From: Candidatus Nealsonbacteria bacterium | Lineage (GTDB): Bacteria; Patescibacteriota; Minisyncoccia; Minisyncoccales; JANBVM01 | NCBI GenBank assembly: GCA_047456295.1 | Contig: CP179887.1 | Coordinates: 239,159 to 303,158, forward strand | Length of the DNA: 64,000 nucleotides | Reading direction: 5' to 3' | Part shown: piece by piece, positions 9,127 to 63,268 of the stretch | Layout of the letters: each line of letters starts with the position of its first letter | How positions within the stretch are numbered: position 1 is the first letter of the stretch | Program-made: the position numbers and the translations under genes | The notes under the pieces: generated by a model | Told to the model about the DNA's origin: nothing | Seen by the model: the letters and a program-made list of their open reading frames with translations, nothing else | Databases searched by the model: none

Positions 9127-12144
<3,018 letters not shown>

Positions 12145-12486: not shown

Positions 12487-13173
12487 TTATCTCTCTGAAA
12501 ACTTTCTCTTTAACTCTTCAATCATTTTTGCAGCAGCATCTTTTCCTCCCAAACCAAAAGCTAATCCAAAAGCCAGAGAAATCATACCCACAAAACCCAT
12601 AACCAGGGTATTAATGATTGTCGGAGTAATTCCTAATTGAAGCAGGATTGCCAGGCCGGCAAAAACATAAATTGCCCACCTTACTGATGTTCCTAAGAAT
12701 CCTGTATATCCCAGTTCCATCTTTTTTGCTCCAGCCTTGATAACCTTTTCCAGGATATCGGTCAAAATTATCGCCACCACGAAAATGGCCACTGCTACAA
12801 TTAAATTGGGGAGCCAGCCAAGCACATCACTCAAAAAATCAGCAAATTGAACAAAACCTAAAATCTCCACTGAAGCCAGTAAAAACACAATAACTAAAAT
12901 CCATTTACAAATCCCTCCAACAAACTCTGAAGGATTAACCTTTAATTCTGCCTTGGAAAGGGCTTCTCTCCACCCGGTTCTCTCAAAGATTTGATTAAAT
13001 TTCAATCGTTTTAAAATCTCAGCTATCAGTCTTCCCACCCCCGTTGCCACCAACCAACCAATAACAAAAACGATTATTGACCCGAGGAGCCTGGGTAAAA
13101 ACAGCAAAAAACCCTGCCATGTGTTTTGTAATGCTTCAAGGGTAATTGTTGACCAGTCTTTAATCATACTCAT
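12487..13173 (-). CDS. polytopic membrane protein with conserved TM-helix repeats (CmpX/MscS-associated type)
   Basis: 228-aa ORF with repeated hydrophobic helices and an overall pattern like TM_helix-repeat proteins. The family assignment is from memory only. Confidence 0.5.
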   Translation of the reverse strand: MSMIKDWSTITLEALQNTWQGFLLFLPRLLGSIIVFVIGWLVATGVGRLIAEILKRLKFNQIFERTGWREALSKAELKVNPSEFVGGICKWILVIVFLLASVEILGFVQFADFLSDVLGWLPNLIVAVAIFVVAIILTDILEKVIKAGAKKMELGYTGFLGTSVRWAIYVFAGLAILLQLGITPTIINTLVMGFVGMISLAFGLAFGLGGKDAAAKMIEELKRKFSER

Positions 13174-13366
13174 ATAATTAATCTGAATTATATTATCTTA
13201 TTATTATATATGTAATTTGATGTATCGACCTTTAAAACCTATTGATACATTATAGCATTCTGGCAAGCAACAAAAAAGCTTGCTGTGGAAAACTAAAAAG
13301 TGGAATATTCTAAAGATTGCTTGAACATTTTTTGCCGCTTTCGGCGGCGAAAATCCTAAAACAATT

Positions 13367-14593
13367 TTATCCCTTTATTTTAAGAAAATCAATTATAGTG
13401 CGTAAATAAATTTCTGTCACCTGCTTGATGCTATTAAGATATACAAACTCATCTTTTGAATGAACATTTTCGCCATCTGGACCAAATCCGCAAACCGTTG
13501 GAATTCCTCGACCAATAAACATCCATCCATCATTCCAGGGACCGCTTCCTTCTAGCACTGGTTGATGTGCTAAAATTTGTTGAGAATGTTTAGAAAGTAA
13601 TTTAACTATTTCTTCCTCTTGAGATATCTCTACTGCGGGCACAGAAAGAATATCTTTAAGTTTGTATTTGATATTCTTACCAGCTAATTTTTCAGAGATT
13701 AACTGTTTAATTTGTTGGGCAGCATTGCTCGGCAATAATCTGACATCTCCATAAGCCTCACATCTATCAGGAATTAAATTTATTGATTTACCACCAGTAA
13801 TAATAGTAGGAAAAGAAAAAACAGGTTCTCTGTTTGGAAATATTGCTGAAGAACTAAATGGAATCTTTAAATCTTGTAATAATTGTATAATTTTCGCCAT
13901 TTCAGTGATAGCATTTTTACCTTTTTCTTTTTTTTCCCACTCGGAGGTCCCTGTATGAACAGATTCTCCAAAGGTTGTTAGTTTAAATCGATAACCCCCG
14001 CGATGACCAATGCAGATTTTTTTATTTCCCGGCTCGGCAACAATGGCCGCATCTCCTTTTAATCCTTGGTCTAAAAGATATTGGGTCCCATATTTTGAAT
14101 AAGCACCGGGTTCTTCATCAACAACAAAGGTTAAAATTAAATTTCCTTTAAGTTTCAAACCAAGACCAACTAAAGCCTTAGCTACAAAAACAAAAATTGC
14201 AAGAGAGGCTTTCATGTCTGCCGAGCCAACGCCAAACAATTTATTATCTTTTATTTCACCACTGTAAGGATTAAAAGTATAATTTTCTGGAGGAACTATG
14301 GTGTCCATGTGTCCATTCAATATCAATGTTTTTTCGCCATCACCTTTAATTTCACAAATGACATTGGGTCGATTTAAAGAAATCCCCTTGAATTTTGGGG
14401 ATAAACCTATTTCTTCAAGTTTATTTTTTATCAATTTAGCTACTTTCAGTTCAATAGGGGTATCTGATAAAGAATTTTCGGGAGTAAAAGGATTGCTACT
14501 TTTTGTTTTTACTAATTTTTGTAAAAACTTTATTTGTTCATCAAAAATTTTATCTAAAAATAATTTTATTTCATTGTCCAAATTTCTTTTCAT
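13367..14593 (-). CDS. M20-family metallopeptidase/deacylase (ArgE/DapE/CPG2 type)
   Basis: 408-aa ORF with metal-binding motifs (LNGHMDTV, GSADMK, VVDEEPG) and a C-terminal H(S)KDEF. Confidence 0.85.
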   Translation of the reverse strand: MKRNLDNEIKLFLDKIFDEQIKFLQKLVKTKSSNPFTPENSLSDTPIELKVAKLIKNKLEEIGLSPKFKGISLNRPNVICEIKGDGEKTLILNGHMDTIVPPENYTFNPYSGEIKDNKLFGVGSADMKASLAIFVFVAKALVGLGLKLKGNLILTFVVDEEPGAYSKYGTQYLLDQGLKGDAAIVAEPGNKKICIGHRGGYRFKLTTFGESVHTGTSEWEKKEKGKNAITEMAKIIQLLQDLKIPFSSSAIFPNREPVFSFPTIITGGKSINLIPDRCEAYGDVRLLPSNAAQQIKQLISEKLAGKNIKYKLKDILSVPAVEISQEEEIVKLLSKHSQQILAHQPVLEGSGPWNDGWMFIGRGIPTVCGFGPDGENVHSKDEFVYLNSIKQVTEIYLRTIIDFLKIKG

Positions 14594-14720
14594 AAAAATT
14601 TTCTTTTACCTGCCGGCAATATCGGCAGGAAATTAAAAACTAAATTTTAGCTGGAAAATCCCGTTCAATTTTGTCGCCGAGCGAAGCGAAACGACAAATA
14701 ATGGTTTGACTTTTGAAAAG

Positions 14721-14795
14721 TGGTGGACCTGGTGGGAATCGAACCCACGAGCTCCTCATTGCAAATGAGGTGTTCTACCATTAAACTACAGGCCC
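14721..14795 (-). tRNA. tRNA-Ala (anticodon UGC), CCA encoded
   Basis: The reverse complement is GGGCCTGTAGTTTAATGGTAGAACACCTCATTTGCAATGAGGAGCTCGTGGGTTCGATTCCCACCAGGTCCACCA. It folds as a cloverleaf and has the G3:U70 Ala identity pair. Confidence 0.9.
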
Positions 14796-14810
14796 GTTTT
14801 AATAACCCTG

Positions 14811-14882
14811 TGGGCACAGAAGGAGTCGAACCTTCCACCTCTTCTTTATCAGAGAAGCGTTCTACCGCTGAACTATGTGCCC
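14811..14882 (-). tRNA. tRNA-Ile (anticodon GAU)
   Basis: The reverse complement is GGGCACATAGTTCAGCGGTAGAACGCTTCTCTGATAAAGAAGAGGTGGAAGGTTCGACTCCTTCTGTGCCCA. The anticodon loop is CTGATAA. Confidence 0.9.
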
Positions 14883-15445
14883 TGTTTTTCCAACACAAAC
14901 AACTTCTTTGTTATTGGATTGAAGGTTGAAGAAACCTTTTTTTGAAAAACCAACCTCAGCCCCAGCTCTTTAAAAAGATCCTGCCATGCTTTATCTGATT
15001 TAAAACAGGTTTTGTTTCTGTTGCCAAAAATCTTATTAAAAGAAATGCCGTGGAGCTTACAAAATAATCCTGAAAAAAAACCTTCGGCCAGATCTTCGTA
15101 AATTAAAATCTTATCTCTGGTAACCCTTCTGGCTTCTTTTAATAAAGACAAGGGATCCTGGCTGTGGTGCAGCACATAAGTTATTAAAACAGCATCAAAA
15201 TTATTTTCTGGAAAAGGAAGTGATCTGCCGTCAATCTTTTTAAATGGTATGGGAAATATCCTCCTGTCTGTCACATCCACTCCTATTAATTCAGCCTGGA
15301 AAAAATCCTGAAAGGTCTTGGCCACTATTGATACACCGCAACCCACATCAAGAATCCTGGATTTCTTTTCAATAAAACCCTGACAGTCCTGACACATCTT
15401 TTTTGCTGCCCTCTGGTAGATTTTTAAAAAGGCCTGGTAATACAT
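14873..15445 (-). CDS. class I SAM-dependent methyltransferase
   Basis: 190-aa ORF with SAM motif I (ILDVGCGVS). Its stop overlaps the 5' end of tRNA-Ile. Confidence 0.8.
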   Translation of the reverse strand: MYYQAFLKIYQRAAKKMCQDCQGFIEKKSRILDVGCGVSIVAKTFQDFFQAELIGVDVTDRRIFPIPFKKIDGRSLPFPENNFDAVLITYVLHHSQDPLSLLKEARRVTRDKILIYEDLAEGFFSGLFCKLHGISFNKIFGNRNKTCFKSDKAWQDLFKELGLRLVFQKKVSSTFNPITKKLFVLEKQGT

Positions 15446-15972
15446 TACTTTCTTGGTTTTACAAAACTTCCGGTTATAATCTCGGGTATTAATCTTTTAA
15501 GAAAAGCTCCCTTGATTTTAATTGACCTGGCATAATCACCTGAATTAATAATGATGTTTGGTTGATTTAACAGGGATTTATTAACAAAGCTGGGAAAACC
15601 AAACAAATTACCAAATGGAGGGACAGCTCCAATCTTTACCCCTTTAAATCTATTCTTCATTAACCTTTCTGTAACAAATCCAATGCTCTTTACTGAATTC
15701 TGGCCATTTTTCCTGAGCCAGTTATTGATTGTTTTTTTAAATTTATTCTTGTCCAGGTTTTTATTTGCCGGAACCAGCACCACTGCTAAATCACTGTCGG
15801 TCTTTAAAACCAGGGTTTTTCCAATCATGCCTGGTTTCATTTTTAAGGTCTGGGCTTTATCAAAAGCAGTATACACTGTTTTATGTCCTATTATTTCGTA
15901 TTCAACCCTGTTTTTCTCTAAAAGATTAATTATCTTTTTAGAAATTGGCATAATAAAATAATTGTAGGCCAT
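15445..15972 (-). CDS. YbaK/EbsC-type aminoacyl-tRNA deacylase domain protein
   Basis: 175-aa ORF with a pattern typical of the YbaK/ProRS-associated editing domain (IGKTLVLK..., AVPPFGNLFG). Confidence 0.75.
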   Translation of the reverse strand: MAYNYFIMPISKKIINLLEKNRVEYEIIGHKTVYTAFDKAQTLKMKPGMIGKTLVLKTDSDLAVVLVPANKNLDKNKFKKTINNWLRKNGQNSVKSIGFVTERLMKNRFKGVKIGAVPPFGNLFGFPSFVNKSLLNQPNIIINSGDYARSIKIKGAFLKRLIPEIITGSFVKPRK

Positions 15973-15998
15973 ATTGTTGAATTTGACAAGCCAACATC

Positions 15999-16022
15999 AA
16001 AAAACCTGTAAAAAACTACAGG
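15999..16022 (-). terminator. intrinsic terminator directly downstream of the 16S rRNA
   Basis: The minus strand reads CCTGTA-gttttt-TACAGG followed by TTTTTTG. Confidence 0.6.
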
Positions 16023-16151
16023 CTGCTTGATTGAACATTATGTTTCGGTTTCTCAGAGTTGTCCTGGATCAAGATTTTAGGCTCCTTGATCAACACCTTT
16101 AGAGTTAAAACCCAAATTTACGATTTCAACCCTAGTCGACAACTCAAAATA

Positions 16152-17657
<1,506 letters not shown>

Positions 17658-50740: not shown

Positions 50741-51806
50741 CTAATCACCTAGTCTAATTTCAGCTTCAATAAATTGATCGATTTGACCGTCTAACACCTT
50801 TTCAATACCAGTGGCTTCTACCCCTGTCCTGAGGTCTTTTACCAGTTTATAGGGATGAAGTACATAACTCCTTATCTGGTTTCCCCAGCTGGCTGAAACC
50901 TTTTTTCCCTTTACCTCAGTCATTTCCTTTTGATGACTCTTTTGATAAAAATCGTAAAGTCTTGAATAAAGTATTTCCATTGCTTTTTTTCTGTTCTGGG
51001 CCTGGGATCTTTCTGACTGGCAGGAAGCTACAATGCCTGTTGGTATGTGCCTGATTCTGACTGCTGTCTCTCTCTTGTTTACATATTGACCCCCAGGACC
51101 TGAAGCCCGGTAAAAATCAATCTTTAAATCATCTGATTTAATATTTATATCTTCCTGGGACGGATCCTGGATTCTAGGAACTACCTCCACTAAGGCAAAA
51201 GATGTATGGCGAAGATTCTTTGATGAAAAAGGAGAAATCCTGACCAATCTGTGCACTCCACTCTCATTTTTCAAAAAACCGTAGGCAAAGAGTCCTTTAA
51301 TCTCCAAGGTTACTGTCTTTGTACCAATTCTTCCTTCAGGTCCTCCACCCTCGCCAAAAGACTGATGTAAAATATCAACCTTAAATCCCTTTATCTGACA
51401 ATACCTTTCATACATTCTCAAAAGCATGGTTGTCCAATCCTGGGCATCCTGTCCTCCTGCCCCGGCATAAATGGATAATACAGCTTCTTTTCTGTCATAT
51501 TTTCCTGAAAAGAAGACTTCTTTTATTTTCCTTTTCAACCTCTTCTCCAGTTGATTTATCTCTTTCTGACTGTCTGCCTTCTCTATCTCTTTTTTTAAAT
51601 CATCAAAACTGCTTATCTCCTGGTTTAACTGATTAAATTCCTGGGAAATCTTCACCGCCCTTTTCTTGTCCTGCCAAAGATCAGGATTTTGAAGTTCTTT
51701 CTCTAATTCTTTTAATCTCTTTTTCTTTTTTCCAACGTCAAAGACGGTCCTCGAGATTGAGGAGTTTATTCTTTAAATCTTCAATTTTCTCAGAAATAAT
51801 CTTCAT
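50741..51806 (-). CDS. prfB: peptide chain release factor 2, requires a programmed +1 frameshift
   Basis: Frame 0 runs from ATG at 51806 for 22 codons (MKIISEKIEDLKNKLLNLEDRL) and ends at CTT TGA C. The +1 frame continues DVGKKKKRLKELEKELQNPDLWQDKKRAVKISQEF... into the 304-aa track ORF. GGQ is present, and RF2 is assigned by overall similarity. Confidence 0.9.
51737..51743 (-). other. RF2 autoregulatory +1 frameshift site CTT TGA C
   Basis: The minus strand reads CTCGAGGACCGT CTT TGA C. The slippery CUU plus an in-frame UGA is identical to the classical prfB site. Confidence 0.85.
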
Positions 51807-51921
51807 GCTAAATAGATTATATAACAAATTCTTCAAAAATAAAAGGGCTTTTATGAGCCAGTATTACAACATATTGGGTTGATTATTTGTTATAAGAAAG
51901 TATAAACCTTATTAATATCAA

Positions 51922-52203
51922 TCAATCTATCCTTATTATCTTGATTGCCTTGCCTTTTATTAAGGCTTCACTAACCTTTCTATAGGCTGAAGATAAGATT
52001 CTTTGAAAAGTGCTCTGGGAGGTTTTCATTTTTTTGGCACAGTCAGTCTGGTCTAAATTCTTAATATTCTTCAATCTCAAGGCTTCCACCTCTTCAGTTG
52101 TTAATTCAACCACTTCCAAAAACCTCATTGGCACACCAAGAGGTTTAAAATAAGTTACATCTGGATTAAATCTGATTCTTCTGCAAAGCCTTGGTCTTAC
52201 CAT
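51922..52203 (-). CDS. DUF134 (UPF0251) small DNA-binding protein
   Basis: MVRPRLCRRIRFNPDVTYFKPLGVP...LTTEEVEALRLKNIKNLDQTDCAKKMKTSQSTFQRIL matches my recollection of the DUF134 pattern with a sigma region 4-like HTH. Confidence 0.7.
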   Translation of the reverse strand: MVRPRLCRRIRFNPDVTYFKPLGVPMRFLEVVELTTEEVEALRLKNIKNLDQTDCAKKMKTSQSTFQRILSSAYRKVSEALIKGKAIKIIRID

Positions 52204-52289
52204 AATTGAAATTATTAAAAATTAATGATATTTTATAAATAAAGAAGGCTTCCCAGCCCTTTAAAAAGGGCTGGGTTCTCAACCTTCTT

Positions 52290-52559
52290 TTATTTTTTAG
52301 TCCTTAGTTTAGCCAGGCGTTCTTTAATACCTTTTAATTCATCTTCTAAAAGTTCAGCTTCTTCTCTTAATATTTCAGTCTCTTCTTTTCTGGTTATTTT
52401 GGGTTCATATGGACCATAACCCCAGAATCTACCCCAGCCACGACCACGACCACGACCCCAACCTCTACCCCCACCCCAACCCATTCCGCCACAAGGACCC
52501 CATCCCCAACCAGTGCCTGGACCAAAACCTAAAGGACCTGTTCCGTCAAATCTTGGCAT
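52290..52559 (-). CDS. DUF5320-like protein with a Gly/Trp/Arg-rich N-terminus and a coiled-coil C-terminus
   Basis: Starts MPRFDGTGPLGFGPGTGWGWGPCGGMGWGGGRGWGRGRGRGWGR, followed by an EE/KL-rich helix. This family is commonly paired with DUF134 (from memory). Confidence 0.6.
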   Translation of the reverse strand: MPRFDGTGPLGFGPGTGWGWGPCGGMGWGGGRGWGRGRGRGWGRFWGYGPYEPKITRKEETEILREEAELLEDELKGIKERLAKLRTKK

Positions 52560-52884: not shown

Positions 52885-55800
52885 TTATTTATATTTTTGG
52901 ATATCTTCCAACTCTGCTTGAACCTTTTTGATATTCTGGTCAGTATTATACATCTCTCGACTTACACTTTCTATCTTTCCCCAAGTCTCATTGATGGTCT
53001 TTTTTAATTTTGATATAAAACTCCGTTTCTCATTAATCCAACCTTGAACTTCCTCTGGATCATAGGCGTCTCTTTTTATATCTTCGCATTCTGAAATCTC
53101 TCCTTCCACCTTTTCAATAAGACCTTTATTTTTGTCCAATGTGCTATTCCATCTATCTATATTATCTTGATCGCGCATCATATCTTCTTGTAACTCATAT
53201 AAATATTCTTCTTTTTTCCGCCGTCTTTCTTCAATAACTTCTCTAGAAACTAATTTAAGAAATCCTGATTCGGGGTCAACTTTTGATACATTCAATAAAA
53301 GTTCTTCTCCTTCAGATGGAATACCTATTGACTGGTCTAAATCCGTGCCGAAAGCAAATGCAGAAGTGCCGTCTTCAAAAACCATATCTATTGTATCAAT
53401 GTTTTCGCCTGTCTCATCATAAATAACTTTTTCTACAATTCCCGTAATTGAATCTCCTTGGTTTAAACTTGATAGTCTTTCTTTAAGTTTTAAAGAAACG
53501 ATTTTAACGTCGAAGCAATATTGCCAAGAATGTCTTTTTATGAAATCAGCAATCTCTGGACGGACACGCCATTTTAAATATTCAATACAGAAAGGAGTAA
53601 ACAATTCACCTTTATCAATATCGTATTCCCAATCCCTGGGTTTTGTTTTATATTCTTCCTCTGTGAGATTAATTGATATTTTATCTCTTTCATATCGTTT
53701 AGATGAAAGTTTAACTATAATTTCTTGACCAATTTTGAGATTATCAATTTCTCCTCTGATTAAATATTTTTTATCAATGACAGTTTCGAAACTATGAACC
53801 ACCCCTAGTTCTCTGGGAACAACGACCGTAATTCTTTCTTCCCTGATATCTTCTATGTATCCTTTTAGATTAACCCTATTAATCCTGCTATCATTATTGA
53901 ATATCTCTTTTTTAATTTTTTTCAGGTCCTGGATAATCCGATCAATATTACTTAATTTAGGACAACCTGCTCTATTAAAATCTTTTATGACAAGGTCCAA
54001 TGTTTTTCCTTCGATTCTTTTTAAGCCCGGACCAAAATAAGAAAGACTCATTTCAGCCATCTCTACCGGAATTTCAAATCCATCTTCTGTCACAGCTATA
54101 ATCCAACCACTCTTTCCGTTAGGGTCTCGATTTACTTGATTTATCTTTACCTTGAGATATTCTCCTTTTTTCTCAACTAATCTTTTTCCTTCAATAAAAG
54201 AACTTAAAATAGCTAAAGGTTCACCGTCTTTTTCTATCCATCCGACAATTCTAGCTGGATTACTCCTTTTTTCACTAATCCATATGCCTTCAACAGGGTA
54301 TAATAATTTTTCTTCAAGTAAAAGCTTGTTTTGGAAAGATATCTTTGTCCTGCTGAATTTCGGACGTTCATCTATTGCAGTAAGAATCCTCCTGTACCCT
54401 ATTATAACTGGTGAAGGAGTTTCAATAACTTTCTCTAAATAATACCTTCCGTTTTCTTCTTTCGCATAAACTAAACTGTCAACTGGAAATTTCTGGTCAA
54501 TAAAAAGATCTATGTTTTCCTTGGTTGAAATTTCATCAAACGTCTGAACCGTAAAGGAAGCTGTCGGCAAAAATAATAAATCACCATTAAATACAACTTT
54601 TTTTTCAGTGGCTGCTGTTATAATCGCTCTTTTTCTTTCTTTCCAATTACCGGCACAATGTGGAGAAATCATTCCTATTTCACTTTTTCCTTTTACAGGA
54701 TAAGAAATTACTTCTCCCTTATTTAAATCTACTAACTTCTCCGGCCAAACGACGGGCATTAAAGAACGAACTTTATCAAGCAAACCTATATTAACCTTTC
54801 GACTTTCAGCTTTTTTTGTTTTTTCTCTAAAGCTCTCGATAAACTCATCTGTATCAGAAATAATCTTTTCTAAAATATTACGATTAACAAAATGATATCT
54901 TACCCATTCCCTACCCTTATTCCTAAAGCATAAAGATAGCTTTATTATTAAATCCAAATCATCTCTGCATCCTATTTTCAGACCCTGCTGAATTGCATAG
55001 ACTCTTGCTTTAGTTACAGCTGTCCATCTCTCATCCCAGATTAAAAGACCGTGATAAATATCATATAATTCTGCTCCTGTTCTAATTTCTTCTTCGCAAG
55101 CCGACAATAAAGCAGTCATTGTTTCTGGCAAACAATTTTGTTTCTCTGCCAACTGAATCAAAGCGACCTCATAAGATGGCCTTGGAATATGGAATATTTC
55201 AAGAACTTTATCTGTGACATCTCCTTTATTATCAATGAATTTCTCTCTTTTGGTGGCTCTAGATGACCTTTCTATCTCTAGATTTAACTCTCCTCCGGGA
55301 GACCCGACCCAAGGGATTCTTTCGGTTATACCAGCTGCTTTTAAGGTTAGTAAAGGATCGTCAAGGCAACTCCTGAAAATTTCTGGTCGCGTATATTCAT
55401 TAAACTCTTCTTTAAATATTTCTTCCGAATAAAGGCAATAAACATATCCTTTCTGAACTCTGCCAACTCTTCCCCATCTCTGCTTACAGCCAGCTTTGCT
55501 ATGATGCCTTGCTGACAAAGAAGATATTTCAGTCTCTGGATCCCATTGAGATTCTTTTATGTAACCAGAATCTATTACATACACAACATCGTCTAATGTA
55601 TGCGAAGTTTCAGCGATATTAGTGGTAATTAAAACCCTTCTATTCTCTCCTTTTTGATTAAATCTTTTAGCCACTGCCTTTTCGCCTAATCGGCTGTAAA
55701 TCGGGATAACGGGGATTGAATCTTTTGGATCTATTATTTTTTTTCTCTCCTTAATTAATCTGTAACTCTTCTCAATTGTTGATTCTCCTTGTAAAAAGAT

Positions 55801-56877
55801 TAAAATACTTCCTGTTTCAGTTTCCTTTAAAAACTTCGTAGTAAATTCTGTCACTGTTTCCGCTAATTCATGCCTACTGGGAGGACTCTTTTTATCCTGC
55901 CAAAATTTCTCTCTTTTTTCTTTATTTGAACAAAGCCAACAATCGCAATTCTCAATCGATCCGCCTTTCCAAAAATGGGGCCCGCAGTAATTTTTTTCTT
56001 CTTTCAATGTCTCGGAAAGATCAAAAACATCAACAGATATGCCTTCTTTCTGAAAAGTTTCTTTAAATTCATCAACATTGATAGTAGCTGAAGAAACAAT
56101 AAGCCGTAATTGGGGATGCTTAAGTAACTCATTTTTCAAAAGCATTAATATGGTATCAATATTACAGGTTCTTTGATGGGCTTCGTCTACCATAATCAAA
56201 CTGTATTGACATAAATGACCGTCTCTTATCCAATTTCTTAAAGAGCCATCGGTAACAATTACTCCTAAGTTTTTACGGTCATATCTTTCATCTCCCCTGT
56301 GACGAAGACCAAGAAGCTCCATTTCTCCTATCCCAGAACCACCTAAAAGTTTTTCACCGATTGTTTCGGGAATCCTTTCAACTGCTGAACTCAAGGGCTG
56401 CGTTTGGATAAATTGACCCTGGTGTAGCAAACGTTCAGTGAAATCTCCCGCGTAGTCTAAAGGCGCTAAAATTAATCTGTAAGGGATAAAAGTTGACTTA
56501 CCTGTTCCTGTCGGACTAGCTAATACCACCACCTGGTTTTTATCAAGCTTTTCATAAAGTTCCAGGATATGTTCATCTGTAATTCTAATTTTCATCTCGG
56601 TTTTTTCTATTTCCTTTTTGTTTATCTCTGGATTTCGCTCTCCATGAAAAGTATAAGAATCGTTAGACAAAGAGAAATTCATAAAAAGAATTTCTCCTAA
56701 CTCTATCCCAAAATAAGGGAGTTCAATATCTCTGACATCTTTTTTATGGTCTTTCCTGTGTTTTTTACATCTCTCTGGTATACTTTCTCCTCTTTCTGAC
56801 ATCAGATCATATACTTCTTTCGAAAATTTAAATTCTTCTCCACAATCTTTACATATATATCTAATTTCATTTACCAT
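52885..56877 (-). CDS. giant DEAH/RHA-family (HrpA/DHX-like) helicase with an N-terminal zinc ribbon and a ~780-aa C-terminal extension (OB/S1-like repeats, terminal coiled coil)
   Basis: Motif I ASPTGTGKST (about 56490-56525), II MVDEAH (56176-56193), III SSAT, V TNIAETSHTLDDVVYVIDSG, VI QRWGRVGR. An HA2-like PEIFRSCLDDPLLTLKAAGI follows. The N-terminus has CKDCG...RCKKH. The C-terminus has several S1-like segments and EE/KK-rich heptads. The start is taken as ATG at 56877, 5 nt after AGGTGA; the track ORF extends to GTG at 56886. Confidence 0.8.
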   Translation of the reverse strand: MVNEIRYICKDCGEEFKFSKEVYDLMSERGESIPERCKKHRKDHKKDVRDIELPYFGIELGEILFMNFSLSNDSYTFHGERNPEINKKEIEKTEMKIRITDEHILELYEKLDKNQVVVLASPTGTGKSTFIPYRLILAPLDYAGDFTERLLHQGQFIQTQPLSSAVERIPETIGEKLLGGSGIGEMELLGLRHRGDERYDRKNLGVIVTDGSLRNWIRDGHLCQYSLIMVDEAHQRTCNIDTILMLLKNELLKHPQLRLIVSSATINVDEFKETFQKEGISVDVFDLSETLKEEKNYCGPHFWKGGSIENCDCWLCSNKEKREKFWQDKKSPPSRHELAETVTEFTTKFLKETETGSILIFLQGESTIEKSYRLIKERKKIIDPKDSIPVIPIYSRLGEKAVAKRFNQKGENRRVLITTNIAETSHTLDDVVYVIDSGYIKESQWDPETEISSLSARHHSKAGCKQRWGRVGRVQKGYVYCLYSEEIFKEEFNEYTRPEIFRSCLDDPLLTLKAAGITERIPWVGSPGGELNLEIERSSRATKREKFIDNKGDVTDKVLEIFHIPRPSYEVALIQLAEKQNCLPETMTALLSACEEEIRTGAELYDIYHGLLIWDERWTAVTKARVYAIQQGLKIGCRDDLDLIIKLSLCFRNKGREWVRYHFVNRNILEKIISDTDEFIESFREKTKKAESRKVNIGLLDKVRSLMPVVWPEKLVDLNKGEVISYPVKGKSEIGMISPHCAGNWKERKRAIITAATEKKVVFNGDLLFLPTASFTVQTFDEISTKENIDLFIDQKFPVDSLVYAKEENGRYYLEKVIETPSPVIIGYRRILTAIDERPKFSRTKISFQNKLLLEEKLLYPVEGIWISEKRSNPARIVGWIEKDGEPLAILSSFIEGKRLVEKKGEYLKVKINQVNRDPNGKSGWIIAVTEDGFEIPVEMAEMSLSYFGPGLKRIEGKTLDLVIKDFNRAGCPKLSNIDRIIQDLKKIKKEIFNNDSRINRVNLKGYIEDIREERITVVVPRELGVVHSFETVIDKKYLIRGEIDNLKIGQEIIVKLSSKRYERDKISINLTEEEYKTKPRDWEYDIDKGELFTPFCIEYLKWRVRPEIADFIKRHSWQYCFDVKIVSLKLKERLSSLNQGDSITGIVEKVIYDETGENIDTIDMVFEDGTSAFAFGTDLDQSIGIPSEGEELLLNVSKVDPESGFLKLVSREVIEERRRKKEEYLYELQEDMMRDQDNIDRWNSTLDKNKGLIEKVEGEISECEDIKRDAYDPEEVQGWINEKRSFISKLKKTINETWGKIESVSREMYNTDQNIKKVQAELEDIQKYK

Positions 56878-56928
56878 TTTCATCACCTAGTTTTTTCAAT
56901 AAATATTTAATTTTAAATAACTATTTTT

Positions 56929-56956
56929 AATCTAATCTTTTTTTGGTTTCTGTCAA
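56929..56956 (-). promoter_or_regulatory. candidate promoter of the helicase gene (TTGACA-N16-TAGATT)
   Basis: The minus strand reads TTGACAgaaaccaaaaaaagatTAGATT. Confidence 0.45.
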
Positions 56957-56976
56957 ATAGAAATGAATTTTCAAAT

Positions 56977-57003
56977 AAAAAAGTGGCTTATTTTTAAAGC
57001 CAC
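56977..57003 (-). terminator. intrinsic terminator after the 1,007-aa gene
   Basis: The minus strand reads GTGGCTT-taaaaat-AAGCCAC followed by TTTTTTATTTG. Confidence 0.65.
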
Positions 57004-57029
57004 AATATAATTTAATATTTATTTTTTAT

Positions 57030-60000
57030 TTAGTACCATTCTGAAGCTTCACCATAATAATTATTTCTTATTCCACCAAGTCCTTCTTTTTCTATTGTGT
57101 TTTTTCTTAACCTTGCGCTGATTATCCTCGGTTTCACTACCAACTGGCCTCGATATTTCCTTAAAAGTTCGATTACTGCCCGAAAGGCTCCGACAGCGGC
57201 TGGCGTAAGTCCGGTAGATAAATATATATCTAGCTCTAATCCGTCCCAGTATTCATTTTTCATTTCCGGCCTCCTTATTAATAATGCTCTGAAACTAAGA
57301 CTTAAGTCTTCTTCTTCAACCTCTTTCCTTAACAGCTTAATGATTTCTTCTATCTGTGAGTATACTTCCCTGAAAGCAAATTCTTGCTGATCGGCTGAAG
57401 TTTCTTTTCTCTGTATTTCTACATTTCGGATTAAGGACATTTCAGTAAAGTAATCTACCTCCATATGGCGTAGAGAAACAAGAGATAAGGGCAAGTAATA
57501 GAACTTGCCGGACGGCCTTTTTATTTCCGGAAAGGCAAATAACGAAAGTGGCTCTTCTTGCGTACCGTCGCCATAAGCAACTCTAAGCATTATTTCTTTT
57601 TTTATTTCTTTGCTCTGGTAAAGATAATCTCTGATTCCCTCTACAAAAACATGAGAACGAATTGAATTCATACTTAATGGAGTATTATTCTTTAAAGAAT
57701 CGATAGCTCGACTATGAAGTCTGTCTATTTCTCTTCTGCTACTTATATATTGTTTATCCTTCTTCCTTTCATTTATCGCTAAATGAATTCTTTCTATTAA
57801 TTCTGAAGGGAGCTCGGCCTGTTCTTTGATTTCAGGAGTTTCTAAAATGAGTTCTATGGGTAGAGGTTTCCAAGGTGGATTTATCACCACTATTCCTCCT
57901 TGAACTTCTTCTAAGACTGAGAGTAAATTTGTGTTTTTAATCTTTTTCCGAAATTCCGGTATTTCTGTGGGTCTCACGTATGAAAAAGTTATACCTTGGT
58001 AATCTGAATCTTCTATTTTCAAAGCGTTTAATAAATCTTCGGCTTCTTTATCTTTAAATTCAGCTATCACTGTATAATTCTGAAAAGCTTCTCTTTCTAC
58101 CACTTCGCAGTTAAAAGCGAAATCTTTTCTATACCTGTTTATATCTACTTTTTTAGTAATTAACCTGCCAAAAGTTCTTGCGTCTGTAGAAGCGTTTCGT
58201 AGTCCACTGGGCTTTTTCCATCCCTCTTCTGGAACCTCAATAATCCAAAGCTCCAATGGAGCTCTTCTCTGAGGAAAGTGCCTCATATTCCTTGTACGAT
58301 TCATTCTTTTTTGCACTTCTTCATCTAAAAGAAGATACATTCTGGTCGGAGCAAATAAAATATGCATTCCCTCTACTGTTTCAGATACTTTTACTAAATT
58401 TTTTATTTCTCTTAATATCTTTTCTGGATTCTTATCTTTGTAAATAATATTCAGCATTAAGGTATTAATCATTTCATTGCTTAACAAAAGACAACGAGTT
58501 TTAACTTCCATCTCACAATCCAGCAGCATTTTAACATTATCTTCAATCCATGTTTTATCGTATTCAGGGTCAGCTGAAAATCTTGGTTTTGAAAGTAAAA
58601 TAACTGGTTCTTCTGCTTCTACCCATTTTTCAGATTTATCTATAGTCCAAGACGGCGGAATGCAAAATCTCTGATTACATTTCAAAATCCAAAACTTTTC
58701 TTTTGGCTCCAAATAACATCTTGCTTTTACTTTCTCTATTTCTTCAACAGATACGCCCCCTGTGATATAAGCCATAATTGCCTGCCGGAATCTTGTAGCT
58801 AATAAAGCCGATCTGCCATAATTAAATGATTCTGAATAAAATAATCTATTTTCAGGCAAGTCAGTTCCTAAAATAATGCCTTCGGGCCTTGGAGCATTGA
58901 GAAAAAGCCAAATCACTTCTTCTCTTGTCCATATGCCTTTGCATATTGCTTCTGCAATCATTTCCCTGCTTAGATAACCGGCTTTTTCAAGCTCTATAAT
59001 CTTTTCCTCTATTTCAGGAGACAGATCAAGTAAAACAAAATATAATTTTACCCCTTCTTCATGAAAAATTATTCCTTTTTCAGCCTCTTTAAAATTAATA
59101 CCGTATTTTTCAGCTATCTCTAAAATTTCTTTGGGAATCTCTCTTGGAGCCCTTTTCTCTCTCATCTTCTTAAATTCTTCATGAACTTTGCCATTTATAT
59201 CCTCTCTTATATCCTTGGTAAAGATAATATTCAAAGAGCCGCTGTAATCCCGGGCTCTGCTAAACATTTCATTAACTAATATTCTCACTGCGCTTCCATC
59301 TTTAACAAGCCCTGGCTGGTCAAAGGTATAAAATTCATCTACTTCTAAACAGGCTTTAAAAAAATCATACCTGAATGCGCCCAAAGCTATTATATAATCT
59401 TTAACCCTGCTTATTACTGTTCTCCACTGCCTGATTCCTTTTCCTCTGCCCTCTTCTGCCTCTTTTTGGCGATTTCTCACTTTATTCCAGGCAACAGCAA
59501 GTCTCCTTGATATTTCTTGATGATGTTTAATCCAGTCATTGAAAAATCTCGGCTTCATTTTAAGGAATTCTAAGAATTCTTTTCCTGTCAAATCAACCTC
59601 CACTAACGGAACATCTTTTTTTGTTGCTTTCTCCAAGTCTAAACATAGAGCCCTATTCTTATCAATAGATATAGCTACTAATTTGTTTGATAAATCAGGT
59701 CTTTTTGTCCTTAAAATCTGGGTTGTCTCTAGGACTGACGTCTTTACTTCTTTTGTTGGAGTACCTGAAATATTAAATCCATCTATTATTGCTGAACCTT
59801 CTTCTAAAAGAAATTGACGGTAGGATTGAGGAAATTGTAGCCCAAGAATTCTTTCAAAGAAATCTATTTCTTTAAGAAATCTCTCTTGTTCTATTTTTAT
59901 CAACTGAAGTCTCCTCTTTTTCTCTTCCTTTACCCATTCTGGAAGAGAAATTCCTTCTTTTTTAAGATAATTGCGGTAACAATTATTACAGATAAAGTCT

Positions 60001-60053
60001 TTAACTTTTCTTTTCTTTTTTCCACAAATTGGACATTCTAAATTAGCATTCAT
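57030..60053 (-). CDS. 1,007-aa protein: N-terminal zinc ribbon + SUKH (SMI1/KNR4)-like domain + ~840 aa of unrecognised sequence
   Basis: CPICG..(13)..CNNCY at aa 7-25. FERILGLQFPQSYRQFLLEEGSAIIDGFNISG (aa ~65-96, nt ~59559-59873) fits the SMI1/KNR4 N-terminal pattern. A perfect SD, AGGAGGTG, lies 6 nt upstream of the ATG. Confidence 0.75.
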   Translation of the reverse strand: MNANLECPICGKKKRKVKDFICNNCYRNYLKKEGISLPEWVKEEKKRRLQLIKIEQERFLKEIDFFERILGLQFPQSYRQFLLEEGSAIIDGFNISGTPTKEVKTSVLETTQILRTKRPDLSNKLVAISIDKNRALCLDLEKATKKDVPLVEVDLTGKEFLEFLKMKPRFFNDWIKHHQEISRRLAVAWNKVRNRQKEAEEGRGKGIRQWRTVISRVKDYIIALGAFRYDFFKACLEVDEFYTFDQPGLVKDGSAVRILVNEMFSRARDYSGSLNIIFTKDIREDINGKVHEEFKKMREKRAPREIPKEILEIAEKYGINFKEAEKGIIFHEEGVKLYFVLLDLSPEIEEKIIELEKAGYLSREMIAEAICKGIWTREEVIWLFLNAPRPEGIILGTDLPENRLFYSESFNYGRSALLATRFRQAIMAYITGGVSVEEIEKVKARCYLEPKEKFWILKCNQRFCIPPSWTIDKSEKWVEAEEPVILLSKPRFSADPEYDKTWIEDNVKMLLDCEMEVKTRCLLLSNEMINTLMLNIIYKDKNPEKILREIKNLVKVSETVEGMHILFAPTRMYLLLDEEVQKRMNRTRNMRHFPQRRAPLELWIIEVPEEGWKKPSGLRNASTDARTFGRLITKKVDINRYRKDFAFNCEVVEREAFQNYTVIAEFKDKEAEDLLNALKIEDSDYQGITFSYVRPTEIPEFRKKIKNTNLLSVLEEVQGGIVVINPPWKPLPIELILETPEIKEQAELPSELIERIHLAINERKKDKQYISSRREIDRLHSRAIDSLKNNTPLSMNSIRSHVFVEGIRDYLYQSKEIKKEIMLRVAYGDGTQEEPLSLFAFPEIKRPSGKFYYLPLSLVSLRHMEVDYFTEMSLIRNVEIQRKETSADQQEFAFREVYSQIEEIIKLLRKEVEEEDLSLSFRALLIRRPEMKNEYWDGLELDIYLSTGLTPAAVGAFRAVIELLRKYRGQLVVKPRIISARLRKNTIEKEGLGGIRNNYYGEASEWY

Positions 60054-60104
60054 TTATTACACCTCCTAATATTTAGTTCTAAAAGAACTTTATTAACTAT
60101 TTAT

Positions 60105-60163
60105 AATATATTTAATAATAGTTTTTTGTCAAATTTGCGTAAAATTGTTTTTTAGGTTATAGT
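60105..60163. promoter_or_regulatory. back-to-back divergent promoters between the 1,007-aa gene (-) and the sigma-like gene (+)
   Basis: Minus strand: TTGACA (60132-60127)-N16-TATATT (60110-60105). Plus strand: TTGCGT (60135-60140)-N17-TATAGT (60158-60163), then 8 nt to the ATG at 60172. A palindrome AGTTCT-aaa-AGAACT at 60075-60089 lies in the minus-gene leader. Confidence 0.5.
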
Positions 60164-60171
60164 GATTTATT

Positions 60172-61026
60172 ATGTCTAACAAGAAGATAAAAAAAGATAA
60201 AAAGGATATAAAAAAGAAAGTAAAAGAAGCGACGGAAGAAAAATTAAAACGGGGAATTCAGCAAACTAAACAGCTTCAACAATATTTGAAAAAAATCGAC
60301 AAAATTCCTCCTCTTTCACCAAAAGAAGAAAATAAGTTATGGAAAAAAATAAAAGAAAGAGAAGGTGATAAAAAATTAGAAAATAAGATTTTAAAAGCAA
60401 ATTTAAAACTGGTAGTTTCGACTGCCAAAAAAATCATTAAAAGACCCGATATTAGAGCTCGCTTTACACTTTTAGAGCTAATTTCAATAGGTGAAGAGAG
60501 TTTGCGAGCTACAATTAAAGTTCATAGATGGCACTGGGAAGAAAGAAAAAAGAAATTTTCTTTCTATGTTACTTATGGTATAAAGGGAGATATTTTTCGG
60601 AGTCTGATGGTCAAAGAGCGGAAAGAATACGAAAAAAATATTTTTAGCCCTGACGAAAAAAAAGAACTATTGCTTTACGGAGAAAAAGATGGGAAAGTTG
60701 ACTTAATCGCTAAAATTTATCACAGGGATAAAAAAATAATAATCAAAGCTAAAAATCTTAAGGCGGGAGAAGAACTTTTAAAAGAAATAAATCAAGCACT
60801 TCAAAAAGAAAAATATTTCTCAATTCCTTGGCACGAAGAAAAAAATGGGATAATTTCCTATGGTTTTTTGTTAAAAAAATTAGGAGATCAGGGCTTCCTT
60901 GAAGTTTTAAGAGCTGAATTTCGTGAATATAAAAGCCTTGCTCCCGGGACTGAAGGTGTATTAGCGAATAAAAAATTTAACAGATATAAAATTAAACCCA
61001 ATCTATCACGAATCATTTATAAGTAA
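60172..61026 (+). CDS. sigma-70 region 1.2/2-like domain fused to a C-terminal domain of unknown function (no regions 3 or 4)
   Basis: YLKKIDKIPPLSPKEENKLWKKIKE..GDKKLENKILKANLKLVVSTAKKI aligns to the sigma-70 consensus YLKEIGKIPLLTxEEE..GD..A...LIEANLRLVVSIAKKY. The 2.2-2.4 equivalent, LELISIGEESLRATIKV....KFSFYVTYGIKGDIFRSL, is diverged. Aa ~165-284 are paralogous to the next ORF. Confidence 0.65.
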   Translation: MSNKKIKKDKKDIKKKVKEATEEKLKRGIQQTKQLQQYLKKIDKIPPLSPKEENKLWKKIKEREGDKKLENKILKANLKLVVSTAKKIIKRPDIRARFTLLELISIGEESLRATIKVHRWHWEERKKKFSFYVTYGIKGDIFRSLMVKERKEYEKNIFSPDEKKELLLYGEKDGKVDLIAKIYHRDKKIIIKAKNLKAGEELLKEINQALQKEKYFSIPWHEEKNGIISYGFLLKKLGDQGFLEVLRAEFREYKSLAPGTEGVLANKKFNRYKIKPNLSRIIYK

Positions 61027-61042
61027 GACTTAATAATGATTT

Positions 61043-61071
61043 TTGTCAAATTTTTATTTTTATTGTATAAT
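61043..61071 (+). promoter_or_regulatory. candidate promoter (TTGTCA-N17-TATAAT), 10 nt upstream of the ATG at 61082
   Basis: The plus strand reads TTGTCAaatttttatttttattgTATAATtatcctgcctATG. Confidence 0.55.
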
Positions 61072-61081
61072 TATCCTGCCT

Positions 61082-61456
61082 ATGAATAAAAAAATAAAAA
61101 AACTTAGATTATATGGAGAAAAAGATGGTCTCAAGGGTTTTATTGCTGATATTTATGTAAAAAATAATAAATTAATCGTAGAAAGTGAAAATAAAAAGGT
61201 GAAAAAAGAGCTTTTTGAGGAAATAAACAAAGAAATTCAGAAAGGAGAAGCTTTCCGTATTCCTTATACAGAACACACTGGTAGAACTATTGAAGAAGGT
61301 GTTTTACTTCAGAAAATAGGAGATTCAAAATTCCTTGAAGCTCTTGAGGCTGAATTTTGGAAAGTTATTGGTTTAGGAGATATGGGTAAATTTGGAAATA
61401 AGAAATTTGGCGGATATGAAATTAAAGCCTACAAATCAAAAATTATTGAGAAATAA
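61082..61456 (+). CDS. 125-aa protein, stand-alone paralogue of the C-terminal domain of the sigma-like protein
   Basis: LRLYGEKDGLKGFIADIY...FRIPYTEH...LLQKIGDSKFLEALEAEF...GNKKFGGYEIKAYKSKII aligns with LLLYGEKDGKVDLIAKIY...FSIPWHEE...LLKKLGDQGFLEVLRAEF...ANKKFNRYKIKPNLSRII in the 284-aa protein. Confidence 0.7.
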   Translation: MNKKIKKLRLYGEKDGLKGFIADIYVKNNKLIVESENKKVKKELFEEINKEIQKGEAFRIPYTEHTGRTIEEGVLLQKIGDSKFLEALEAEFWKVIGLGDMGKFGNKKFGGYEIKAYKSKIIEK

Positions 61457-61492
61457 TTGTTGATTTGAAATTTAACATTCAAAGAATTTTAT

Positions 61493-61520
61493 ATAAAAAA
61501 ATACCACTTAATAGAAGTGG
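61493..61520. terminator. bidirectional hairpin terminator between convergent genes
   Basis: CCACTT-aatag-AAGTGG is flanked by an A-run on the left of the plus strand, which becomes a T-run for the minus-strand gene. Confidence 0.55.
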
Positions 61521-61525
61521 CGTTG

Positions 61526-62464
61526 TTATTGTTCAGAAATATATTTATTCAGAAAGTCTTCCATTTCCGGGCAAACTTTTACCAAACCCGTATCCCAAGC
61601 AGCAATATTCTCAGCAATGAATTCTGGATCCGAAAAAGCTGATTCTTTTGGAATATCTCCAGAAAGACATTCTCTTGCGACTTGACTGACGGGGCCAGGG
61701 CCGTCTAATTGTTTTTCACAAACTTTTTCCCATTCAGTTAAATGGTCATCAAAAAAGATTTTTGCAAACTCGCTTGGTTTACTTAAAGATTTACTTTTAA
61801 AAATATTAAGATGACACAATTCATGTGTTATTCTCCATTGAGTCTGTTTCCCCCGTGGAAGTTTTCCTTTTTCGTTTTGATAAACATGAATAGTTCTAGA
61901 AAGCTCTGGTTTTTCTTTAAGTGTTTCTTTATTTAAGACATCTGCTTTTGTTATAGTTCCTTTTTTCGTACCAGGTTTTTGATTACTAATAAATATTATC
62001 TTATCTACCACTTCTATATCTCTAAATCTAATTGAAAGTTTACTGTTATATAGCGCAGTCATCGCATCCTTGATTTTTTCCTCTATATTATCTATTCTTT
62101 CTAAGGTAATTATGTCTTTAATTCCTGTTACTGCTGGCGTATTAAAAATCTCAAATTCTTTCATACCTAATCCTGTTCCTATTTTATACATTTCTTGATA
62201 TTCTGCTTCAGTTGGCTTAACTTCCAAATCGAGTTTTTCGATATCTGTTGGTTCACGACCTTCTTGTTCTATTCTCTGAATTAATTCTCCTCTGGCTTTT
62301 TCTACTCCTTCTTCTTTAAGTTCAATTACTCTTTGTTTTATCGTTTCTCTTACTTTCGGCATCACTTCCTTCAGCATCTCAGGATCTGGCTGAGAGAATT
62401 TTCCTTCTCTTGCTTGTTTTAATAACTCATCGTCTCTATCATTGGGAACATTTGTACATCCCAT
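61526..62464 (-). CDS. HExxH-motif protein, putative zinc metallopeptidase (family unassigned)
   Basis: 312-aa ORF with WRITHELCHLNIF at aa ~221-233. No signal peptide or TM segment. An SD-like AAGGAG lies 11 nt upstream of the ATG. Confidence 0.55.
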   Translation of the reverse strand: MGCTNVPNDRDDELLKQAREGKFSQPDPEMLKEVMPKVRETIKQRVIELKEEGVEKARGELIQRIEQEGREPTDIEKLDLEVKPTEAEYQEMYKIGTGLGMKEFEIFNTPAVTGIKDIITLERIDNIEEKIKDAMTALYNSKLSIRFRDIEVVDKIIFISNQKPGTKKGTITKADVLNKETLKEKPELSRTIHVYQNEKGKLPRGKQTQWRITHELCHLNIFKSKSLSKPSEFAKIFFDDHLTEWEKVCEKQLDGPGPVSQVARECLSGDIPKESAFSDPEFIAENIAAWDTGLVKVCPEMEDFLNKYISEQ

Positions 62465-62837: not shown

Positions 62838-62857
62838 ATGTTCGTTATAAGATATCT

Positions 62858-63268
62858 CTACCACTGGATTACCCTCGCTAATAAATCTTTGATTTTTTCC
62901 AACAACATTTCTGAAAAACCCTGACCTGACACTAATCCTTCTTTTTGAACTTCAGCAGGAGGTATAACCACAACAGGATTCTCTCCTTCTTTTACATATC
63001 CTTGTTCTCTGGCTTTTTCCTCCCAATAACTTTCTTTTTCTGTTTGAGAGATTCCGGCTTCTAATCTCTGTTTTTCATCCTCTAAAATCTGAATTTCTTT
63101 TTCAAAAGACTCAATTTTTTCAGCCAACTCTGTTCTCTTTTCACTTATCTTAAAAAGAGAAATCCCTAAAAAGCCAATTAAAAATAAAATCAGAAGGTAA
63201 AATATAACCTGAAAAATAAATCCTTCTTTATATCGCTTCTTTTTTTGTCTTTTAGATTTTGTTATCAT
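62858..63268 (-). CDS. ftsB: septum formation initiator (FtsB/DivIC-like)
   Basis: A basic N-terminus, a single TM helix, then a coiled coil (EKIESFEKEIQILEDEKQRLEAGI). The start is trimmed to Met17. Confidence 0.65.
   Translation of the reverse strand: MITKSKRQKKKRYKEGFIFQVIFYLLILFLIGFLGISLFKISEKRTELAEKIESFEKEIQILEDEKQRLEAGISQTEKESYWEEKAREQGYVKEGENPVVVIPPAEVQKEGLVSGQGFSEMLLEKIKDLLARVIQW

Follow-up and report, generated by a model that had tools for sequence, protein, structure and literature searches.

The window analysed here, a 64,000-nucleotide stretch of a Candidatus Nealsonbacteria genome (assembly GCA_047456295.1, contig CP179887.1, positions 239,159 to 303,158), carries on its reverse strand the gene for a large DEAH/RHA helicase, termed H (52885..56877). 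Judged by comparison with related loci, H is the constant member of a cassette that is conserved and has spread horizontally. Its genes run in the order N, small gene, P, H; N encodes a toxin-like protein and P a SUKH-domain protein of 1007 amino acids (aa); the window holds the whole cassette, at 52885-62464. Confidence in the architecture of H and in the cassette itself is high. The best explanation of the arrangement, that H serves as the constant motor of an intracellular conflict cassette of the defence or addiction type, is given slightly better than even credence, and the functional reading of the cassette is held tentatively. The accessory architecture of H and the cassette are undescribed in the libraries and literature searched; H itself belongs to the known DEAH/RHA family.

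The evidence for the cassette comes from the neighbourhood of P, which lies directly upstream of H on the same strand (57030..60053). Homologues of P (n=50) came from sources whose names include Nealsonbacteria, Harrisonbacteria, Atribacteria, Thermotogae, WS2 and a Thermococci archaeon, and 49 P-bearing loci plus the window, amounting to 39 non-redundant loci, were analysed by our own open reading frame (ORF) calling, phmmer and clustering. In 24 non-redundant loci the gene for H comes directly after P in the same orientation, in many cases across a gap of 13-50 nucleotides (nt) or with overlap, a result at odds with the sequence-only reading of the window, which had described H as an independent transcription unit. 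In a further 4 loci H lies 1.8-4 kb from P on the opposite strand, and it is missing from 3 loci for which sequence was available, P being truncated in one of these. The distant-subfamily helicase P0078 (29% identity) also follows P, here split into two genes (hidden Markov model (HMM) E 3e-82 and 2e-64) and preceded by a 305-aa protein starting MSVGCN; because this subfamily keeps the same order, the cassette characterises the helicase family as a whole. Combined, the comparative data show P and H to be obligate partners in the genome and indicate that they function together. Downstream of H, 8 loci other than the window encode a protein of ~450 aa, termed B (L004:10476-11831, L011:9032-10432, L014, L016, L019, L022, L023 and L044), with an invariant H..F-D-x-D...D-H-H near its N-terminus and a Cys cluster at its C-terminus. 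An assignment of B as a DHH phosphoesterase finds no support, the likeness being by eye only and Pfam and PDB profile searches returning no match.

An uninterrupted ORF spans 52885..56886 on the minus strand and reaches upstream to a GTG at 56886; a Shine-Dalgarno-like AGGTGA sits 6 nt upstream of the ATG at 56877, and the closest orthologue, P0001, aligns from the Met encoded there. Because of this Shine-Dalgarno-like site and the orthologues starting at the same Met, 52885..56877 (1330 aa) is the best gene model for H. Residue numbers are counted from GTG 56886 (minus 3 for numbering from the ATG), and all domain coordinates of H refer to the minus strand. The core motifs PTGTGKST (125-132), DEAH (234-237), SAT (266-268), TTNIAETS (421-428) and QRWGRVGR (469-476) are all present, as the sequence-only reading had stated, and are intact in 25/25 aligned relatives with the exception of one DECH. 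The RecA1 domain (residues ~105-280; 56047..56574) holds motif I (K130), motif II (DEAH) and motif III (SAT), and RecA2 (residues 336-499; 55390..55881) holds motifs V (TNIAETS) and VI (QRWGRVGR) with the DEAH-type hairpin region between them. According to phmmer searches of PDB sequences, the closest structures are Prp2 (E 1.8e-45), Prp43 (2e-43), DHX8 (~4e-41) and HrpA (~3e-35), with matches far beyond chance over residues ~110-591, which take in both RecA domains and the winged helix, and with an alignment to DEAH/RHA proteins that is continuous through 335-591, including the hairpin region. Judged by its motifs, core similarity and auxiliary module, H is an enzymatically intact DEAH/RHA-type superfamily 2 helicase.

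Pfam matches in H comprise DEAD and Helicase_C, together with a weak zf_Tbcl treble-clef match (E 0.005) at the N-terminus. There, a zinc ribbon or treble-clef-like module (residues 9-50; 56737..56862) with the pattern CxxC...Cxx[C/H] is supported by ligand conservation: C12, C15, C40 and H43 (Cys in many relatives) are kept in 24/24 full-length relatives, in agreement with the ribbon noted previously. A Cys-rich insertion separates the two RecA domains (residues 281-335; 55882..56046; H304...C314-x-C316-x2-C319). Its H/C/C/C set is kept in 11/25 relatives, which form the subfamily of the window, and is missing from the distant subfamily; the insertion is a possible second metal site.

The C-terminal part of H was modelled with AlphaFold2 (residues 500-1333, with 27 family sequences as input), giving a confident model (predicted local distance difference test score (pLDDT) 84.8, predicted template-modelling score (pTM) 0.73) in which a winged helix, a helical ratchet and an OB domain are followed by four more beta-barrels, one small alpha/beta unit and two terminal helices of ~55 residues each. 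The winged helix (residues 500-600; 55087..55389) is assigned from the HMMER alignment to Prp2, which runs up to 591, from the model and from Foldseek; the HA2-like helical ratchet (residues ~618-715; 54742..55035) from the model and Foldseek; and the DEAH-type OB domain (residues ~716-785; 54532..54741) from a five-stranded barrel in the model. A weak Pfam HA2_C match was obtained in one relative of H, and Pfam HA2, OB_NTP_bind and DUF3418 have no match in H. What the sequence-only reading had called an HA2-like helix is thus predicted to be a complete winged-helix/ratchet/OB module, and of the 780-aa tail that it described as departing from bacterial helicases, ~285 aa form this standard DEAH/RHA auxiliary module. 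A Foldseek search of the PDB with the tail model returned ribosomal protein bS1 at the top (9gut_B, E 8.7e-11, 554 columns), followed by dozens of DEAH/RHA helicases over ~290-360 columns, with Prp16, DHX36, Prp2, Prp43, DHX15 and MLE at E ~1e-7 to 1e-6. The Foldseek output carries no residue ranges, so that the winged-helix/ratchet/OB assignment rests on the secondary structure of the model, and ~290-360 columns fit such a span.

Beyond the OB domain, the modelled barrels are A (residues ~800-898; 54193..54489), B (GEYLKVKINQVNRD..., residues ~905-982; 53941..54174; also matched to bS1 by Foldseek), C (LKIGQEIIVKLSS, residues ~1000-1075; 53662..53889) and D (GDSITGIVEKVIYDE..., residues 1141-1216; 53239..53466). 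Between C and D lies a small alpha/beta linker domain (residues 1076-1140; 53467..53661), recognised from the model and from conservation that includes an RHSWQYC motif. The C-terminus is a two-helix, coiled-coil-like hairpin (residues 1217-1333; 52888..53238; model helices 1215-1271 and 1277-1332) with weak SMC/ASRP matches, corresponding to the ~110 aa of charged heptads that had been noted from the letters. A profile of the post-OB tail (residues 786-1216, from nine family members) was searched against the whole PDB and gave significant matches only to bS1 chains (4.6e-9, 1.6e-6, 9.6e-6 and weaker), all at barrel D, which also aligns with an S1 reference in hhalign at 58% probability; the other barrels gave only weak signals. 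The H protein of the window alone has no Pfam S1 match; the relative P0066 exceeds the Pfam S1 threshold at the barrel D position, and in some orthologues the helical hairpin gives way to S1 and KH domains that Pfam recognises. From these profile matches, barrel D is a true S1 domain. By hhalign, barrel A has no S1 signal at the sequence level, and barrel B is weakly related to barrel D (E 0.002); near barrel C, weak profile matches to the S1-type protein GSP13 and to mL105 were found, and P0001 lacks barrel A altogether, showing a ~100-aa alignment gap relative to H. The three segments that the sequence-only reading quoted as S1/OB barrels do map to barrels B, C and D, with a clear S1 signature in D only. 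A description of the tail as S1 repeats was accordingly replaced by one S1 domain plus S1/OB-like folds, the hhalign signal being moderate only for barrel D. Because the last barrel is an S1 domain and S1/KH domains replace the hairpin in some orthologues, an RNA-handling role for H is a reasonable inference.

Bacterial DEAH/RHA helicases are essentially known only as HrpA, which acts in ribosome rescue, and HrpB, and eukaryotic ones have been studied in splicing and ribosome biogenesis. The HrpA and HrpB models are the best NCBIfam matches of H, at scores far under their cut-offs: 182.5 and 161.5 bits for HrpA (TIGR01967 / NF008348; cut-offs 722.75 and 1400), with the equivalog match confined to residues 110-530, and 141.5 and 146.9 bits for HrpB (TIGR01970 / NF008662; cut-offs 546 and 1053). 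Additionally, the post-OB tail profile did not match the HrpA C-terminal region in the PDB, a library that includes full-length HrpA. By equivalog scores and PDB bit scores, H is therefore neither HrpA nor HrpB, in agreement with the sequence-only reading, which had seen it depart from both. HrpA comprises an N-terminal three-helix bundle, RecA1/2, wHTH, HB1, OB, a beta-meander, HB2 and a DUF3418 region, the last consisting of two alpha+beta domains (alpha+beta-1 and alpha+beta-2) and a Hook (PMC11419001). The likeness with H lies in a bacterial DEAH/RHA core with a long extension at its C-terminus, presumably for targeting of the motor (PMC11419001), and the two differ at both ends, H having a zinc ribbon, an S1-type barrel array and a helical hairpin where HrpA has the three-helix bundle and the beta-meander/HB2/DUF3418 part. 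In sequence, the best RecA1/RecA2/winged-helix matches of H are the eukaryotic Prp2, Prp43/DHX15, Prp22/DHX8, Prp16 and DHX36 (E 1e-45 to 1e-37), with which it shares the winged-helix/ratchet/OB module by fold. DHX8/Prp22 likewise joins a DEAH core to an S1 domain. In H, however, the S1-type barrels are C-terminal and multiple; a zinc ribbon, a Cys-rich inter-RecA insertion and a terminal helical hairpin are added; and the protein is prokaryotic, encoded in a cassette and paired with a SUKH-domain protein, a G-patch partner not being evident. The remaining relative, bS1, provided the top Foldseek match of the tail and the only significant post-OB profile matches, but the barrels of H are attached to a helicase and only barrel D has a clear S1 signature.

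The family is rare. An exhaustive search of 1.84 billion cluster representatives with the tail HMM returned 200 at E<=1e-3, of which 68 lay at <=1e-10 and 36 at <=1e-30; the weaker matches share only the ratchet segment, and profile positions 20-135, which correspond to the ratchet, also match many other large helicases. Neither an end-to-end alignment of the tail with the DUF3418 region of HrpA nor universal orthologues in related genomes was found, the family being patchy rather than widespread, in which it differs from HrpA and HrpB. An earlier impression that the tail was nearly unique, from a word-indexed search with one homologue, was discarded as an artefact of low-complexity coiled-coil words in view of the 200 representatives, and a GTDB genome scan with two exact tail peptide patterns, which found one locus, is no measure of rarity.

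The partner P combines a zinc-ribbon-like N-terminus, a SUKH domain at residues 61-150 (Pfam SUKH_5/SUKH_6/SMI1_KNR4) and ~850 aa of uncharacterised domains without a family match. Its N-terminal motif reads CPICG...CNNCY ahead of the SUKH domain (window 57954-60053, P residues 1-~700), and an invariant D219...E237-x-D239 cluster falls in an alpha/beta domain. The structure model of P is confident (pLDDT 87.3, pTM 0.83). Beyond the SUKH domain, Foldseek returned marginal matches to Cap4, a nuclease with a SAVED/CARF receptor (E 2.8e-4, low template-modelling score), and a GNAT-like unit. P may have a catalytic or ligand-sensing role, and a CBASS Cap4-like SAVED/CARF receptor, which would pair a SAVED fold with a cognate nucleotide cyclase in the operon, was considered for it.

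Upstream of P, an N-type ORF was detected by the N-module HMM in 25 loci. These class N proteins are 213-372 aa long and share an N-terminal module of ~50 aa (MGC.N..D.DD..L.EA..G) followed by C-termini that vary, with a Pfam LHH nuclease in 8-9 loci, an HExxH domain in the type found in the window and several unknown domains elsewhere. The N gene of the window (61526..62464, minus strand, 312 aa) joins the module (MGCTN...; MGCTNVPNDRDDELLKQAREG...; HMM E 3e-24) to a toxin-like domain whose HExxH histidines, H214 and H218, are invariant in the alignment and are followed by a conserved downstream "AE" motif. This domain has no Pfam or PADLOC match and looks like an undescribed zincin-type toxin domain. 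HExxH-type N genes occur in the window and in L015, L016, L029, L034, L046 and L001. In the distant subfamily, the 305-aa protein upstream of the split P (L050:510-1427) starts MSVGCNLLLTEQDQQQIEAS; it is N-module-like but below the HMM threshold, and a precomputed weak Pfam CARD_2 match hints at a death-fold-like adaptor. A search of 5.8 billion proteins with a 65-aa N-module profile recovered one 62-aa fragment, the query being too short for a database of that size.

The small gene between N and P is variable and apparently cognate to N: a ~180-aa SUKH protein accompanies LHH, a sigma-70 region 1.2/2-like protein accompanies HExxH, and an unknown protein is encoded elsewhere. LHH followed by a small SUKH gene is a known toxin/immunity pairing (Zhang et al. 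2012, PMC3482391). The sigma-70-like proteins match Pfam Sigma70_r2 (down to 2.8e-17) and also r1_2. In the window, C1 (60172..61026, plus strand) has a degenerate sigma-70 region-2-like N-terminal part and a ~120-aa C-terminal domain; it clusters with the Sigma70_r2/r1_2 proteins and has no Pfam match of its own. C2 (61043..61456, plus strand), in the same cluster, is a stand-alone copy of the C1 C-terminal domain, and a 37-nt direct repeat, D2, lies between the two genes. Sigma-70 region 1.2/2-like proteins beside HExxH genes (window, L015, L016, L029, L034 and L046) mostly lack region 4, and their genes are often on the opposite strand to the HExxH genes and in tandem pairs. These small proteins may be target-mimic immunity proteins or RNA-polymerase binders.

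The flanks of H and P are heterogeneous, with mobile-element genes beside some copies (TrwB/TraG, DUF2958, PD-(D/E)xK, serine recombinase and WYL-domain genes at L010; NYN and serine recombinase genes at L011) and housekeeping genes beside others (NusA and trigger factor at L006; RF2, FtsE/X, Obg and LepA in the window). A census of 146 flanking genes found recurring recombinases, integrases, restriction-modification genes and NUDIX, and no further conserved neighbour. L004 is flanked by a large DEAD/MZB helicase: there (14373-16888) and in L005, in the Atribacteria locus, the cassette is followed downstream by unknown genes of 447 and 774 aa and, beyond these, by a 1621-aa DEAD/YjiV_N/Helicase_C/MZB helicase, which may form a second conflict system.

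As a conflict-cassette motor, H would behave like Prp43, DHX36 and HrpA: it would load onto a 3' tail that is single-stranded and pull nucleic acid, most likely RNA, in the 3'->5' direction via the tunnel between the RecA domains and the winged-helix/ratchet/OB module. The S1 domain or barrel array would capture single-stranded RNA, the terminal hairpin could serve in dimerisation or partner docking, and hairpin and zinc ribbon together may mediate assembly. P would be a ~1000-aa SUKH-domain scaffold with which H, on sensing or remodelling an RNA target, would control the toxin-like effector; substrate, direction of control and biological role are here inferred. A more specific version is possible but doubtful: an undescribed conflict system of Candidate Phyla Radiation (CPR) bacteria, Atribacteria, Thermotogae, WS2 and some archaea, in which H senses foreign or aberrant RNA and licenses N-module-docked effectors via P, the effector of the window being an HExxH peptidase checked by sigma-70 region-2 mimics.

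Several observations weigh against the conflict-cassette reading. No defence model of PADLOC-DB 2.0.0 matches P, N, C, B or the split P, and since there is neither such a match nor a known homologous system, the term defence amounts to guilt by association. The flanks are only modestly enriched in defence and mobile genes, many being housekeeping. If the N-module were a homotypic adaptor, a second copy would be expected in P or H; the HMM found none in either. Barrels A-C are S1/OB-like by fold only, their sequence signals being weak, and RNA rather than DNA is the presumed substrate, some DEAH/RHA enzymes also acting on DNA. A terminator-like hairpin splits P from H in the 146-nt gap of the window, where pattern scans alone place a hairpin with T-run at 57003-56983 and a promoter-like TTGACA-16-TAGATT at 56956-56929 (together 56929..57003, minus strand), making a separate or attenuated H transcript possible there. 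Finally, a constant N-terminus with toxin/immunity pairs is a hallmark of secreted polymorphic toxins, and a role in export is possible.

Export is given the most weight among the rivals. In that account, P and H would recognise the N-module and hand the toxins to an export apparatus encoded elsewhere, such as a type IV secretion system or pilus, the small genes acting as classical immunity against the toxins of sister cells. The constant N-terminus, the exchangeable toxin-like C-termini and the adjacent immunity-type gene (LHH with SUKH) all fit the polymorphic toxin systems of Zhang et al. 2012 (PMC3482391), as do the two or three tandem N/small-gene pairs of L015 and L016; type IV secretion pilin or coupling-protein genes also lie near L009 and L010. 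Most loci, however, have no nearby secretion genes, and the carriers, which include an archaeon, have very different envelopes, arguing against dependence on one secretion apparatus. The cassette proteins show no signal peptide, no Pfam trafficking domain and no hydrophobic segment of membrane-spanning length (maximum Kyte-Doolittle 19-residue score 1.29), and all are predicted to be cytoplasmic; RHS or filamentous haemagglutinin repeats and a membrane component are likewise lacking, the toxin-like proteins are short, and the two large constant cytoplasmic proteins, the large SUKH protein and the DEAH helicase, are always attached, an arrangement not described in PMC3482391. We consider export unlikely. 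To our knowledge, no RNA helicase has a role in protein export, which also counts against it.

Three other rivals were weighed. A housekeeping RNA helicase, functioning as an HrpA analogue in ribosome rescue or in rRNA or mRNA processing where HrpA is lacking, would account for the DEAH/RHA core with its bS1-like tail, whose barrels could dock on ribosomes or mRNA, and for the translation and division genes around the window copy and the NusA and trigger factor genes beside the L006 copy; the C-terminal extension of HrpA can recruit such a helicase to ribosomes (PMC11419001). It is nevertheless improbable, given a family of 36-68 cluster representatives in 1.84 billion that is scattered over unrelated phyla and one archaeon, lacks the C-terminal region of HrpA, is at times carried by conjugative or integrative elements and almost always goes together with a SUKH-domain protein and toxin-like genes, for which a core translation factor has no need. 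About as slender a chance is given to a helicase for mobile-element maintenance, replication or anti-defence that travels with a toxin-immunity addiction module without being functionally coupled to it. Several copies are indeed flanked by genes for serine recombinases, a TrwB/TraG-type coupling protein, DUF2958, rve integrases or restriction-modification, yet the P-H pair, mostly with N, is kept in loci with purely housekeeping flanks, the N, small gene, P, H order holds down to 29% helicase identity, a viral origin was rejected since IMG/VR viral contigs contain no P relatives and BFVD gave no match, and no att-like direct repeats that would mark recent integration were found beside the tRNA genes around the window copy. 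Under the last rival, H would be an RNA helicase that stands alone, with its own transcript and with neighbours of no relevance to it. The hairpin and promoter-like site between P and H would suit this view; it is very improbable and already contradicted by the comparative data, the P-H adjacency being kept in the 24 loci described above.

Two further analogies bear on the conflict-cassette reading. In Hachiman and Mokosh, two-component anti-phage systems of a helicase plus an effector, a constant NTP-driven nucleic-acid motor is likewise combined with a toxic effector; in contrast to them, the cassette has no PADLOC match (H itself gave only weak generic Cas3 helicase matches, E 2e-5), its motor is of the DEAH/RHA class, which those systems are not known to use, and it adds immunity-type genes. 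The N-module is similar in concept to effector-associated adaptor domains, short N-terminal adaptors on variable effectors (Kaur et al. 2020, PMC7159879), from which the cassette differs in the single adaptor copy. Literature searches on SUKH with DEAH or helicase, on HrpA-like defence and on polymorphic toxins of Patescibacteria found no description of the cassette, and it is not mentioned in PMC3482391 or PMC7159879.

Other features of the window were recorded alongside the cassette. Directly downstream of H (51922-52559, minus strand) are genes for DUF5320 (89 aa, with a very Gly/Trp/Arg-rich N-terminus) and DUF134 (93 aa), which are not conserved beside the cassette in other loci. The prfB gene for RF2 (50741-51810, minus strand) has a classical programmed +1 frameshift site at ~51743, where the short ORF MKIISEKIEDLKNKLLNLEDRL ends in CTT TGA C and the +1 frame runs on into a 304-aa ORF (50741..51655). 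The rRNA locus (8941-17657, minus strand) has its 16S (16152-17657) and 23S (9129-12140) genes ~4 kb apart, with 5S after 23S and with four ORFs (12487-13173, 13367-14593, 14873-15445 and 15445-15972) and two tRNAs in the spacer; split rRNA operons have been reported in CPR genomes. A 26-nt stretch at 62856-62881, just past the tRNA genes and within the start of a DivIC-like ORF, shares 73% identity with the 5' part of the tRNA-Thr and tRNA-Gly genes next to it, perhaps as a tRNA remnant or just by chance.

Overall, the H family would represent a third prokaryotic DEAH/RHA lineage with its own targeting modules. The HExxH/sigma-region-2-like pairs would point separately to a toxin acting against the transcription machinery; if the specific model holds, either the sigma factor or the RNA polymerase of the host would be the target of the HExxH peptidase of the window. 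A role of the cassette in defence or addiction would add an RNA-translocating DEAH motor to the prokaryotic immunity repertoire, give the little-understood SUKH domain a concrete partner beyond secreted-toxin immunity, and provide a testable conflict system in the CPR bacteria, about whose accessory biology little is known.

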